Shown: positions 24,001-33,000, counted from the stretch's first letter. The stretch is 64,000 bases of DNA from Escherichia coli (GCF_048403405.1 NZ_CP183135.1), one strand, 5' to 3'. A program made the numbers.

Positions 24001-27000
24001 ATCGCGGCGGGTGTCTGAGCCTTTCTGGTTCAGGCAAGACGCAGGTACCAGAAATGCGAAGACCCCACTCGTTAATCCATTAACTCGTGAGGTCTGCATG
24101 AAGTACCTTAACACTACTGATTGTAGCCTCTTCCTTGCAGGGAGGTCAAAGTTTATGACGAAATATGCCCTTATCGGGTTGCTCGCCGTGTGCGCCACGG
24201 TGTTGTGTTTTTCACTGATATTCAGGGAACGGTTATGTGAACTGAATATTCACAGGGGAAATACAGTGGTGCAGGTAACTCTGGCCTACGAAGCACGGAA
24301 GTAAGCTGCCGGGCGGGGACGGAAGTCCCCGCTTTCCGGAAGTGTGAGGTATTTCAGGGGCAGACACCCGACATGCCAGAAACAGCCGGTCCCGCCCGGG
24401 GCCGGCATCCTGGTTAAGGCATTTCCTGCTTTTCAGTCATTTCATTATCAAAATCACATTAAACGGTTGTAATCAGACATGATTTGTGCGCCAACACCGA
24501 TCATCGTCACAACTTTCAAGTCGCTGATTTCAAAAAACTGTAGTATCCTCTGCGAAACGATCTCTGTTTGATTATTGAGGAGGCGAGATGTCGCAGACAG
24601 AAAATGCAGTGACTTCCTCATCGGGAAAAAAACGACCTTACAGAAGGGGTAATCCTGTTCCTGCGAGAGAACGACAAAAAGCGTCTCTTGCAAGAAGGAG
24701 TGCCACTCATAAAGCGTTTCATGCCGTCATTCAGCTTCGACTGAAAGAAAAGTTAAGTGAGCTTGCTGATGAAGACGGGATCACTCAGGCACAGATGCTT
24801 GAGTGGCTGATAGAGTCAGAGGTTAAGCGCAGAAAATCTTTGTGAGTATTTGCGTTTCTTGCTGTTTCAGTGATGAGATGTTAGATTGCTGATCGTTTTA
24901 AGGAATTTTGTGGCTGGCCACGCCGTAAGGTGGCAGGGAACTGGTTCTGATGTGGATTTACAGGAGCCAGAAAAGCAAAAACCCCGATAATCTTCACCAG
25001 GTTTGGCGACTAAGAGAAGATTACCGGGGCCCACTTAAACCGTATAGCCAACAATTCAGCTATGCGGGGAGTATAGTTATATGCCCGGAAAAGTTCAAGA
25101 CTTCTTTCTGTGCTCACTCCTTCTGCGCATTGTAAGCGTAGGATGGTGTGACTGATCTTCAACAAACGTATTACCGCCAGGTAAAGAACCCGAATCCGGT
25201 GTTTACACCCCGTGAAGGTGCAGGAACGCTGAAGTTCTGCGAAAAACTGATGGAAAAGGCGGTGGGCTTCACCTCCCGTTTTGATTGCGCTATTCATGTG
25301 GCGCATGCCCGTTCGAAGGGACTGCGTCGGCGCATGCCACCGGTGCTGCGTCGACGGGCTATTGATGCGCTGCTGCAGGGGCTGTGTTTCCACTATGACC
25401 CGCTGGCCAACCGTGTCCAGTGCTCCATCACCACGCTGGCCATTGAGTGCGGGCTGGCGACGGAGTCTGCTGCCGGAACACTCTCCATCACCCGTGCCAC
25501 CCGTGCCCTGACGTTCCTGTCAGAGCTGGGGCTGATTAGCTACCAGACGGAATATGACCCGCTTATTGGCTGCAACATTCCGACCGATATCTCGTTATAA
25601 GGGCCATCTTCGTACCCTTCTTTCGACGCAATAGCTTTCAGTCTTGCGCTGGCACACGCTGAACTACCCGCATTACCATTACTACAGGCAGCAATAACCT
25701 CCTTATCACTGAATATCTTTTTCAAGCAATGCATCATATTTCTGCTGTGCCTTTTCACGCTCTGCCGGATCTTTACTGTTTTTAATCGTCTGTTTTGCTA
25801 TCTCAAGTTCTGTCTTTTCAGACACGCTCAGGTAGTTATTCTCAACAGCATTCTTCCCGCTCTGTGTGCTCCCACTGCAGCTGATGCGGTGCTGTTTCCG
25901 GTTAGACCGCCGGTCAGCCCTGCTGACACGGTTGCCAGCGTACTTATCGTCTGCTTCTGCTCTTCACTGAGGTCAGACAGCTTCACTCCCGGATACAGCA
26001 TTCCGATCGCTCTGGCTGCCAGCTCTCCTGTTGCTGCGCCTGCTGCACCAGCAGCAACATTATTACTCTGCATTGCTGCTACTGCACCGCCCAGAATGGC
26101 GTGAGCAATGGCCTTTACTGCCGGGTCTTTTTCTGTTGATTTCAGCAGGTATGCCAGTTCCGGAGCCGAAGCTCCCGCCAGTACTGCACCAACGTCACCA
26201 CCTGCCAGCTATGGCTGGAGATGGTGGATGTTACCGATAATCAAGAAGCCTTAGATATAAGGCAATGTTTTATCTTTCTTTCATACGAAAACCAGTGCTG
26301 CCATACTAGCCCTTTTCCTGTGACATCTAAGCGAGCTCATGTTTATCGGGAAGGGTGTTAAATCATTGTTAATCATACACAGGTAATTATGCAGCGGTTA
26401 TGCATAACTTCATTTCGAGCGTGTGATAACGCCAACACAACCACCAGAATTATAAAATAAAATCACAAAACCTGAGAACATATCACATTTTATCACATTA
26501 ATAATTTTTCTTTATGATTTCATAACTATTTACAGCCTTTTATTAAGCCAAAAAAAGTTAAATTGCAATTATTTCATAATTATTCACGCTACAGTTTTTT
26601 TACTTTTAAAATCATATAAATATATAATCACCTTAAAACAGCAAACTCCACAAAATAATAACAAATAGAGATATTTCCACCCAAATAATGACTATCTATT
26701 CATGAGCTGACATTATGAAATTAATCATTATTTAATGCAAGTAACACAAATTAAAACAAATACCTTAATATCCATTATTGTGTGAATCTCATCACAATAA
26801 TGTTTATTTTACCGCCTAGTATGAACCACGAAATCAATTGAAGTTAGCCGCCATGAAATTAAATACACAACATGGCGCATACCTTTTTATTCTAAAAAAA
26901 TTAAAGGAATAATTATGGAAAAACATTACGTCGGTTCTGAAATTGGTCAATTGCGTAGTGTTATGCTGCACCGCCCAAATTTAAGTCTGAAACGTTTGAC

Positions 27001-30000: not shown

Positions 30001-33000
30001 GCCGAGAAATTGAGATGGCATACGGCCTGAAGGGACTGGAGGTGACGGAAGAGGTCTTCGAATCCCCTAACTCTATCGTCTTTGATGAAGCAGAAAACCG
30101 CATGCATACCATTAAAGCGGTCATGGTGGCGACACTCGGCGACTAATCACCACCCGGTGCGTCGTAGGGGGCACCGGGTCTCAGGAGAACATCATGGGTA
30201 AGTTCAAATTTCCCTCCGCATATACCATTCTCTTTTTTCTGATTGCCATCGTTGCCGTCCTGACGTGGATCATTCCAGCCGGGCAGTATCACATGGCAAT
30301 GAACGAAGCTCTCGGCAAGGAGGTTCCTGTTGCCGGCACCTATGCACACGTAGAGGCCAATCCGCAGGGACTGATTTCAGTGCTGATGGCCCCAATTGCC
30401 GGGTTGTATGATCCAGACTCCGGTCAGGCTAGGGCGATAGACGTTGCGCTGTTTATTCTGATCATCGGAGGATTCCTCGGGATCGTCACCAAAACCGGGG
30501 CCATTGACGCCGGAATCGAGCGCGTCACCACCCGACTACGTGGTCGCGAAGAGTGGATGATCCCGATCCTTATGGCGCTGTTTGCTGCTGGCGGTACAAT
30601 TTACGGCATGGCCGAAGAATCCCTGCCGTTTTATACCCTGCTGGTGCCGGTGATGTTGGCAGCACGCTTCGACCCTGTGGTAGCCGCCTCCACCGTGCTG
30701 CTCGGCGCCGGGATCGGCACGCTCGGCTCCACCATTAACCCTTTCGCGACGGTGATCGCCGCCAATGCAGCCGGGATCCCCTTCACCAACGGTATCACCT
30801 TGCGTGTGGTGGTGCTTGTCATCGGCTGGATAATCTGCGTGACATGGGTGATGCGCTATGCCCGGAAAGTTCGCAAGGAGCCGTCTCTCTCCATTATTGC
30901 GGATAAACAAGAGGAGAACCTCGCCCACTTCCTCGGCAATAAAAGCGAACAGGCTCTGGAGTTCACCCCGGTACGCAAAATTATTCTGGTGATTTTCGCC
31001 CTTACCTTCGCGGTCATGATCTACGGCGTGGCGGTGCTGGGTTGGTGGATGGCGGAGATCTCAACGGTATTTCTGGCCAGCGCAATTATCATCGGTCTGA
31101 TCGCCCGCATGAGCGAAGAGGAACTGACCTCTACCTTTATCAACGGCGCGCGAGATTTGCTGGGCGTTGCACTGATTATCGGTATCGCGCGCGGTATCGT
31201 AGTGATCATGGATAAAGGTATGATTACCCATACTATTTTGCACTACGCCGAGGGAATGGTTACTGGATTATCGACAGTAGCATTCATCAACGTGATGTAT
31301 TGGCTGGAAGTGGTGCTGTCGTTTCTTGTGCCTTCTTCGTCCGGTCTGGCCGTTCTGACGATGCCGATCATGGCACCTCTTGCCGACTTCGCTAACGTCA
31401 ACCGCGACCTGGTAGTTACGGCTTACCAGTCTGCGTCCGGTATCGTTAACCTGATCACTCCCACCTCTGCCGTTGTGATGGGCGGACTGGCTATCGCCCA
31501 CGTGCCTTACGTGCGATATCTGAAATGGGTTGCGCCGCTGCTTGGGATATTAACAGTGGTAATTATGGTGGCATTAAGTCTGGGGGCATTGTTGTAATTT
31601 GCCGGATGGCGCTGCCCCTATCCGGTCTACGGAATGGTGTGGTGTCACCGGTTATTTCGAGAACTGAATATAGGATTATGATGGATTACGAAGATTTCTC
31701 TCCCAAAGAGCAACTACAGCTAACGGTCTGCCAACGTCTGATTGCAGAAAAGAGCTATTTTTCCCAAGAGGAGCTTCGCCGCGACTTACAGGAGCGTGGT
31801 TTTGAGACAATCAGCCAGTCCACCGTTTCTCGTCTGCTCAATTTGTTAGGTGTCATAAAAATTCGAAATGCCAAAGGGCTAAAAGTCTATTCGCTGAATC
31901 CACAGTTGCGTCCGGCTCCTGATGCCGCGCGCACTGTGTCCGAAATGGTGGTGAGCGTTGAGCACAATAGAGAATTTATCCTTATCCATACCGTTGCTGG
32001 ATATGGCCGCGCAGTGGCACGTGTCCTTGATTATCACCAGTTACCAGAAATTTTAGGCGTGGTGGCCGGAAGCAGTATCGTCTGGGTCGCTCCTCGGATG
32101 GTGAAGCGTGTCGCTCTGGTGCATAAGCAAATTAATTATTTACTAAGAACGTATTAATATTCACAAATGCCCGCTTGTATTGACTAATACGTAAGCGTCA
32201 ACGGAGCACCGTATTGACGCTTATTTATTGGTGAGAACTACGTTCCATGGCAGGAGTTCGTCAACACGGTTGGAGGGCCATTCCGGCAGTACGCTCAGAA
32301 TATGGCGCAGATACGCTTCCGGATCGATACCGTTCAGACGGCAGGTGCCGATCAGCCCGTACAGCAGTGCACCACACTCGCCGCCGTGATCGCTACCGAA
32401 GAACACGTAATTTTTCTTTCCGAGACAGAATGCACGAAGCGCTCTTTCCGCTGTGTTATTGTCCGCCTCCGCCAGACCGTCATCACTGTAATAACAGAGG
32501 GCGTCCCACTGATTCAGTACATAGCTGAACGCTTCGCCCAGCCTGGATTTTTTCGACAGCGTGCCTGAGCCCGCAGATATTCTATTTCCCGTTCATCTTC
32601 TTCGATCTTTTCTTCGGCACGTGCCAGTGCAGAGCGCAGGAAGGCCTCCGTCTCTTCAACCAGACTCAGTTGCTGGTCTTTCTGACGGAGCTGGCTTTCC
32701 AGTTCTGCAATGCGAATGAGGTATTTCTGACTCATGGCCGTTTTTATAATGCGGCCAGGCGTTTTTTACAACATTGTCAGGGCGTTAAGGCGGGATGTTT
32801 TTGGCTGACGCCAGTCCAGCTTATCGAGGAGCATTGCCAGTTGCGAGCGGGTAATGGATACCTTGCCGTCACGTACCACAGGCCAGATAAACTGGCCTTC
32901 CTCCAGGCGTTTGGTGAACAGGCACAGACCATCAGCATCAGCCCAAAGAATTTTAACGGTGTCACCCCGTCGGCCACGGAAGATAAACAGGTGACCGGAG

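Follow-up and report, generated by a model that had tools for sequence, protein, structure and literature searches.

The mobile arginine deiminase module of an Escherichia coli IncF plasmid with blaNDM: gene content, probable chromosomal origin and predicted control

Introduction

Arginine deiminase (ADI) genes have been described on IncF plasmids of Escherichia coli, including NDM-5 plasmids of the type F36:F31:A4:B1, where the cluster was said to have been 'acquired in an IS66-IS1 module' (PMC7193042). According to Billard-Pomares 2019, as relayed by PMC7671891 and bioRxiv 10.64898/2025.12.08.692488, the arc operon is commoner on IncF plasmids than on chromosomes, its prevalence rose among isolates that produce extended-spectrum beta-lactamases and among those of sequence type 131 (ST131), and it is both deleterious in the mouse gut and a contributor to virulence in a urinary tract infection (UTI) model. 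Here, we analyse such an arc module, consisting of five genes and the region upstream of them, in a stretch of 64,000 nucleotides of E. coli plasmid DNA (GCF_048403405.1, NZ_CP183135.1), which is called the window throughout and from whose first letter all positions are counted. We consider that this is the mobile ADI module already known from E. coli IncF plasmids, and that its function, promoter and origin can be proposed with reasonable confidence (probability of roughly 0.8 for the reading as a whole).

The module is already published and widespread on IncF resistance plasmids, NDM-5 plasmids among them. When 26200-32250 is used as a 6,051-bp query, it is found at 100% identity in pETN48 (NC_014615) and in many other IncF plasmids, and 80% or more of its length is covered by at least 247 records of PLSDB. 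Of 5,426 complete E. coli genomes, 361 have the allele at an identity of at least 99%, and another 558 have only a chromosomal version that is about 77% identical. Plasmids account for 305 of the places where the allele occurs, and chromosomes for about 70. Since epidemic E. coli plasmids are already known to carry the module as an accessory trait, and its fitness trade-off has been published, its rediscovery adds little; the only points that are mildly new are a defined chromosomal origin, a map of motifs upstream of the operon and the missing arginine pocket of its regulator.

Gene content and integrity of the module

The module, with its five genes and its AT-rich upstream region, was confirmed to be real and intact. 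A six-frame list of open reading frames (ORFs) contains five co-directional ORFs on the plus strand between 26915 and 32157. The first, arcA (26915-28135), encodes an arginine deiminase of 406 amino acids, of which residues 5-406 match positions 2-408 of the 408 in the NCBIfam profile TIGR01078 (score 531.8, cut-off 489.1). It is followed by arcC (28146-29057), which starts with ATG and encodes a carbamate kinase of 303 amino acids (384.3 for TIGR00746, cut-off 358.25; 502.3 for NF009008, cut-off 361), and by a gene for an ornithine carbamoyltransferase (OTC) of the arcB/argF type (29142-30146; 334 amino acids), which scores 442.3 with TIGR00658 (cut-off 280.85) and 552.2 with NF003286 (cut-off 515). 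All three are full-length matches to their NCBIfam profiles. The fourth gene (30194-31597) encodes a membrane protein of the YfcC/DcuC family, recognised by the Pfam DcuC profile (PF03606, E = 4.6e-121) and scoring 295.5 with the YfcC equivalog NF008611, below the cut-off of 500. The last one, argR2 (31678-32157), encodes an ArgR-family paralogue of the RosE/STM4463 type with 159 amino acids and the Pfam domains PF01316 and PF02863. An ORF of 210 codons beginning at 31525 is an over-extension of the argR2 frame, as the start is at 31678 in both RefSeq and the homologues, and it was discarded.

A preliminary description of this DNA had grouped arcA, arcC and the OTC gene with a YfcC-family transporter and an ArgR-family gene in one compact module, and both the ORFs and the profile matches agree with this. 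Each of the five ORFs is complete, and none of them was found to have a frameshift, a premature stop or another inactivating mutation.

Chromosomal origin of the module

The plasmid segment 26206-32193 is collinear with a chromosomal locus of the Enterobacteriaceae, which reads yjgK, an AT-rich intergenic region, arcA-arcC-OTC-yfcC-argR2 and pyrL-pyrB. In Enterobacter, Kosakonia, Citrobacter, Pseudescherichia, Cedecea and the native locus of E. coli, the complete order is argI, a divergent yjgK, an intergenic region of about 650-680 bp, arcA-arcC-OTC-yfcC-argR2 and pyrL-pyrB-pyrI-ridA. On the plasmid, the left end of the captured segment is a stub of yjgK (26206-26244, minus strand; 39 bp) that was recognised from ORF maps and from an alignment with 13 chromosomal homologues. 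This stub corresponds to about the first 12 codons of the gene, has its start changed from ATG to TTG and an early TAG stop, and is fused to a fragment of cdiA; the homology to one of the chromosomal loci (L002) begins at 26206.

Both boundaries were placed correctly in the preliminary description, which had named the cdiA fragment on the left and an IS66 remnant on the right. The former (25594-26205, minus strand) is an internal piece of the gene, from the VENN pre-toxin region, and belongs to a stretch (25594-32193) with 99.5% identity to the chromosome of E. coli KKo009, whose annotation calls the equivalent flank a 'VENN motif pre-toxin domain' pseudogene. The latter (32194-33567, minus strand) is an ISEc23-like remnant of the IS66 family, with tnpA, tnpB and a tnpC that has an internal deletion, and it cuts the captured segment at 32193, just past argR2.

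When one genome of each bacterial species was scanned, the closest relatives of the plasmid ArcA were those of Enterobacter (96-97% amino acid identity) and Kosakonia (94-95%). At the nucleotide level, 26206-32187, which includes the whole AT-rich region, is 84.6% identical to the chromosome of Enterobacter cloacae DSM 26481 and 82% identical to that of E. asburiae. With a divergence of about 15%, none of the sampled Enterobacter or Kosakonia loci can be the direct donor, and sequence comparison points to a chromosomal locus captured from an unsampled, Enterobacter-like lineage. The chromosome of E. coli, in which the preliminary description had proposed to look for the source, was rejected as such, given that its own version of the locus shows no more than 77% identity.

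The KKo009 chromosome also carries a copy of the plasmid-type segment, which is 99.5% identical over 25594-32193 and lies within a disrupted cdiBA locus. This copy (11104-20743 of L001, the KKo009 chromosome) runs further to the right than that of the plasmid, through pyrL and about 100 nt of pyrB, and ends at a fragment of an IS66 tnpA. Because it extends into pyrB, the plasmid form can be regarded as a trimmed derivative and, as it retains the donor's pyrL and the 5′ part of pyrB, the KKo009-type segment probably represents the form from which the plasmid module descends.

The upstream region and its core promoter

The region between the yjgK stub and arcA (26245-26914, 670 bp) has a GC content of 29.5%, compared with 53.9% in the genes. 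The AT-richness of this leader had been pointed out previously and is not in doubt, but its interpretation as the mark of a horizontally acquired promoter does not hold. All 22 homologous upstream regions that were compared have a GC content of 29-40%, against 49-61% in their genes, so the AT-richness is an ancestral feature of the native yjgK-arcA control region and not a sign of foreign DNA. The chromosomal regions are also similar in length (about 650-680 bp in Enterobacter, Kosakonia, Citrobacter, Cedecea, Pseudescherichia and native E. coli) and, in an alignment of 14 genera and species, the mean column identity is 69%, with discrete invariant blocks.

Judged by its conservation, the best-supported core element of this region is a CRP site. 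A consensus scan and the alignment both locate a perfect core, TGTGA-N6-TCACA, at 26781-26796, and all 22 homologous regions have GTGA-N6-TCAC between -129 and -141 relative to the ATG. At 20 nt downstream of the core there is a predicted -10 hexamer, TAGTAT (26817-26822, plus strand), in which TA.TAT is invariant. From this spacing, transcription would be predicted to start at about 26829-26830, and the CRP site would be centred at about -41, which is the geometry of a class II promoter. Generic scans of 26000-32400 for sigma-70 promoters and terminators showed no excess over shuffled sequences (6 vs 6.7 and 9 vs 6.9, respectively), and the upstream promoter-like site with the best score (26599-26628) was set aside, since it is not conserved in the alignment with the chromosomal homologues.

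ADI pathways are commonly induced under anaerobic conditions, as stated in PMC11172107, and the operon might chiefly be driven by an FNR-activated promoter, comparable to the control of Pseudomonas arcDABC by ANR. In fact, Enterobacter, Kosakonia, Cedecea and Pseudescherichia have an FNR-like box (cTGAy-N4-nTCAw) 49-50 bp upstream of the CRP core, at about -185 from arcA. We nonetheless consider this possibility unlikely for the plasmid operon. No match to TTGAT-N4-ATCAA with up to two mismatches is present in 26245-26914, and the position homologous to the FNR-like box reads TTAATGCAAGTAAC in the plasmid allele, with the cores of both half-sites changed (TGA to TAA and TCA to TAA). Additionally, the invariant site at -41, with its GTGA and TCAC halves, is of the CRP and not of the FNR type. 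Citrobacter also lacks the box, as does the native locus of E. coli; consequently, the idea that it was lost upon mobilisation is unsupported, and this regulatory input seems to vary between lineages, being present in some genera and absent from others. Thus, among the sites that the preliminary description had suggested searching for in the leader, a CRP core and ARG-like boxes were found, and an FNR box with up to two mismatches was not.

Other conserved elements upstream of arcA

Using the ARG-box consensus WWTGMATWWWWATKCANW, taken from PMC11172107, we found eight ARG-like boxes with up to three mismatches in the plasmid upstream region, while dinucleotide shuffles contained 2.8 ± 1.7. Two of them are conserved in position. 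The first, ATTTCATAATTATTCACG (26571-26588; -344 from the ATG), has two mismatches to the consensus, and a box lies between -360 and -338 in 15 of the 22 homologous regions (shuffle mean 1.4, maximum 5). The second, AATGACTATCTATTCATG (26687-26704; -228 from the ATG), has counterparts between -243 and -221 in nine of the 22 (shuffle mean 1.3, maximum 5). The centres of these boxes are 116 bp apart, at about -135 and -250 from the predicted transcription start.

A direct repeat, TGTTA-N6-TGTTA, with a spacing of 11 bp (26356-26371, plus strand) has core bases that are invariant in 14 genomes and resembles the consensus of the regulator ArcA-P. A second ArcA-P-like box, GTTATTATTTTGTGG (26648-26663, minus strand), occupies invariant columns of the alignment. 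In Salmonella, an ArcA site has been predicted on the minus strand about 271 bp upstream of STM4467, whose expression is altered in an arcA mutant (PMC3848847), and the second box agrees with that site in position and strand. There is also a palindrome, ATGCA-N7-TGCAT (26389-26405), about 520 bp upstream of arcA and close to what was the promoter side of yjgK; it does not vary among 14 genomes. Its halves are spaced like the inner half-sites of a pair of ARG boxes separated by 3 bp; however, the flanking halves do not fit, so the palindrome was rejected as a pair of full ARG boxes, and it matched no known factor.

The 5′ untranslated region (UTR) contains a hairpin (26849-26877, plus strand) with a 7-bp stem, CGCCATG/CATGGCG, and a loop of 15 nt, followed by a T-rich tract, an A-rich tract and the Shine-Dalgarno sequence. 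When sequences were folded individually, the plasmid hairpin had a z-score of -2.75, and most homologues had a hairpin in the same place with different stem sequences. With the structure made explicit, 66% of the cells were paired, compared with 55% in shuffles (none of 500 reached 66%); eight of the 10 pairs were changed on both sides, and slid controls gave 28-48%. Taken together, these figures are moderate evidence, obtained with related sequences, that the hairpin is conserved in position, with compensatory stem changes, across genera, and it may act on mRNA stability, attenuation or translation control. A search of 25500-32400 against Rfam returned nothing credible. A leader peptide acting by attenuation was considered for a 19-codon upstream ORF (26853-26912) that ends 2 nt before the ATG of arcA, and it was dismissed, as many homologues, native E. 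coli among them, either lack this ORF or have it out of frame. Further downstream, the gap between the transporter and regulator genes contains a GC-rich hairpin (31601-31652, plus strand; -30 kcal/mol, z = -2.7) that resembles repetitive extragenic palindromic (REP) elements and may uncouple the levels of the two proteins.

The ArgR-family regulator

The product of argR2 has both domains of the ArgR family, the winged-helix N-terminal DNA-binding domain (PF01316, 4.6e-13) and the C-terminal oligomerisation domain (PF02863, 6.3e-13), and it can be aligned to Vibrio ArgR (3v4g, E = 9e-22) as well as to the N-terminal domain of E. coli ArgR. Its score is below every ArgR equivalog cut-off, with 107.1 against 194 for NF003457 and 99.9 against 130.45 for TIGR01529. 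Because these cut-offs are missed and the GDD motif is replaced by GSS (D128S, D129S), we regard it as a paralogue and not as an ArgR equivalog; hence, the preliminary description was right in giving the module an ArgR-like regulator of its own, as long as this is not understood as ArgR itself, whose Asp-Asp pair it does not have.

In ArgR, L-arginine is contacted by Gln106, Asp113, Thr124, Ala126, Asp128, Asp129 and Thr130, with a salt bridge between its guanidino group and Asp128 (PMC2880562). Apart from the two Asp residues, the plasmid protein has the changes Q106R, T124V and T130I, so that five of the eight arginine-contacting residues of E. coli ArgR are lost. As a consequence, canonical arginine sensing by this regulator is probably lacking, and we consider it unlikely. 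The same trend is seen in its relatives. At the position of GDD, the arc-linked paralogues of Enterobacterales have AGSS, ASSS, ASGN, AGSD, ATNN, ASSN or ASST, and the regulator of the native E. coli locus has AGSN, so none retains the Asp-Asp pair; the arc-linked proteins of Aeromonas (AGND) and of Vibrio and Photobacterium (GGND) keep one Asp, and the housekeeping ArgR genes of Vibrio in the same loci encode AGDD.

The gene could still be imagined to encode a repressor that senses arginine in the canonical manner and switches the operon off in its absence, or a duplicate of the host ArgR. The presence of both Pfam domains would agree with this, as would the SQSTVSR segment, which aligns with SQSKVSR of E. 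coli and Vibrio ArgR, the retention of Arg110 and Asp113, and the finding that RosE (STM4463), its counterpart in Salmonella, binds DNA and represses the std fimbrial operon (PMC2328253). Nevertheless, such a role is quite improbable, given the scores under all ArgR equivalog cut-offs, the five substitutions at L-arginine contacts and an Asp-Asp pair that is missing from every arc-linked paralogue of the Enterobacterales. STM4463 reportedly acts as an activator. The title of Choi 2012 states only that it 'controls' the expression of STM4467.

A more speculative proposal, which we rate as doubtful, is that the regulator, having lost the Asp128/Asp129 pocket, is arginine-blind or responds to a different ligand and acts in trans on ARG-box genes or fimbrial operons of the host, in parallel with its relative RosE at std. 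If so, a plasmid with NDM or CTX-M genes would import a regulator able to rewire the arginine metabolism or the adhesion of its host, and this could contribute to the trade-off between gut colonisation and UTI.

Proposed mechanism

The predicted activities can be assembled into a conventional pathway. Arginine would enter the cell, and ornithine leave it, through the DcuC/YfcC-family protein, which we infer to be an ArcE-type arginine/ornithine exchanger; the ArcE family (TC 2.A.118) corresponds to the family of this transporter (PMC5300872). ArcA, OTC and ArcC would then convert arginine to ornithine, two NH3, CO2 and one ATP, and the breakdown of arginine may in this way provide energy and alkalinisation where oxygen is scarce or the pH is low. 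Transcription would begin at a class II promoter dependent on CRP, some 85 nt upstream of arcA, and the operon would therefore be subject to catabolite repression. The two far-upstream ARG-like boxes are likely sites for the ArgR paralogue of the module, the ArgR of the host or both; in Vibrio, several distant boxes serve ArgR in the activation of arc promoters (PMC11172107). Additionally, the ArcA-P-like repeats may confer a response to redox state or oxygen, and H-NS is predicted to coat the AT-rich tract.

Silencing by H-NS also leads to a different view, in which the module is functionless in E. coli and merely travels as silent cargo with IS1, IS66 and the FII replicon. The very AT-rich upstream region, the insertion sequence (IS) elements on both sides and the fitness cost in gut colonisation that the relayed reports describe would all be compatible with such hitch-hiking. 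Five full-length ORFs, 100% identity across hundreds of plasmids from many lineages, the retention of the conserved promoter elements and the deletion phenotypes mentioned for mouse gut and UTI models in the same reports are difficult to reconcile with it, and we judge silent cargo to be very improbable.

Our preference for a functional ADI module with a CRP-dependent promoter and a captured chromosomal origin must be balanced against several points. The exact donor species was not found, 84.6% being the best match. Taken on its own, the CRP core is close to the chance level, as the window has three matches with up to one mismatch and 2.3 are expected, and the promoter model is based only on the position and conservation of motifs. 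The homologous upstream regions are related and, hence, are not independent samples. The enrichment of ARG-like boxes in a single upstream region is modest, and the ARG-like and ArcA-like blocks nearest to yjgK may have served that gene rather than arcA.

In summary, what is added to the published picture is an origin between yjgK and pyrB of an Enterobacter-like donor, an AT-rich region that is native to this locus and a promoter model without an FNR box. These points are relevant to when the plasmid operon is expressed and to whether its regulator cross-talks with the host.

Surroundings of the module on the plasmid

The location on a plasmid that also carries blaNDM, stated in the preliminary description, is borne out by the window, in which blaNDM occupies 56122-56934 and F-type tra genes occupy 138-18187. 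The blaNDM product has Leu88 and Leu154, the NDM-5 pattern.

The arc module and an extra piece of an FII replicon lie between two copies of IS1 in the same orientation (minus strand), an arrangement like that of a composite transposon. The right copy (33568-34335, 768 bp) is complete. The left one (20199-23683), found by blastn with the right copy, consists of two pieces, 20199-20304 (106 bp) and 23013-23683 (671 bp), and is split by a complete element of the IS66 family (20305-23012), with an 8-bp overlap that resembles a target duplication. Just upstream of this IS1 fragment, at 20062-20077, the window contains a second perfect CRP consensus core, TGTGATTAATTTCACA.

The piece of IncFII replicon (23684-25593, plus strand) includes a hok-type ORF, copB/repA2 (24588-24845), tap and a truncated repA1 (25148-25600). 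A duplicate of this piece lies at 37428-38164, and the annotation of pETN48 shows the same arrangement. When the two control regions, 24459-25196 and 37428-38164, are compared, one segment is 99% identical and the adjoining one 84%, which fits the F36 and F31 alleles described for NDM-5 plasmids.

Comparison with known systems

A parallel outside the enterobacteria is that of Staphylococcus aureus USA300, where the arginine catabolic mobile element (ACME) also equips an epidemic clone with a second arc operon, carried on mobile DNA, as described in PMC5452487. However, the analogy goes no further, as ACME is an unrelated element that resembles staphylococcal cassette chromosomes (SCC-like), has a regulator of the Crp/Fnr type, ArcR, and resides in a Gram-positive host.

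Among enterobacteria, STM4467-STM4463 of Salmonella has the same gene order in a block of about 5 kb, with an ArgR-like regulator that is about 29% identical to ArgR (PMC2328253). It differs in being chromosomal and a different allele, and its orthology is suggested by synteny and by the native E. coli locus. The latter, known from FDAARGOS_1295 and Nissle (PMC10659395), has an identical organisation (rraB-argI-yjgK-[677 bp]-arcA-arcC-OTC-yfcC-argR2-pyrL-pyrBI), with the CRP core and the ARG-like boxes at the same positions as in the plasmid allele and a regulator that also lacks the Asp-Asp pair, although the identity is about 77% at the nucleotide level and 75% at the amino acid level for the regulator. 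The loci of Enterobacter and Kosakonia (L002, L003, L004 and L072) are the closest sampled, with 84.6% identity over 26206-32187 and 97% for ArcA, and, unlike the plasmid allele, they have the FNR-like box.

The nearest relatives are other plasmids. By their description, pNDM-5-IT and p100_NDM-5 (PMC7193042) resemble the window in carrying the ADI genes and the extra FII replicon in an IS66-IS1 module; the transporter is named arcD in that work, whereas by family that of the window is of the ArcE type. Finally, although pTN48/pETN48 (NC_014615; Billard-Pomares et al. 2019, AAC 63:e00635-19) differs from the window in its resistance cargo, which here includes blaNDM-5, and has IncFIA, FIB and IncQ1 replicons, its arc operon is 100% identical at the nucleotide level over 26200-32250 and has the same flanks: the split FII replicon, the cdiA fragment and the IS66 remnant.

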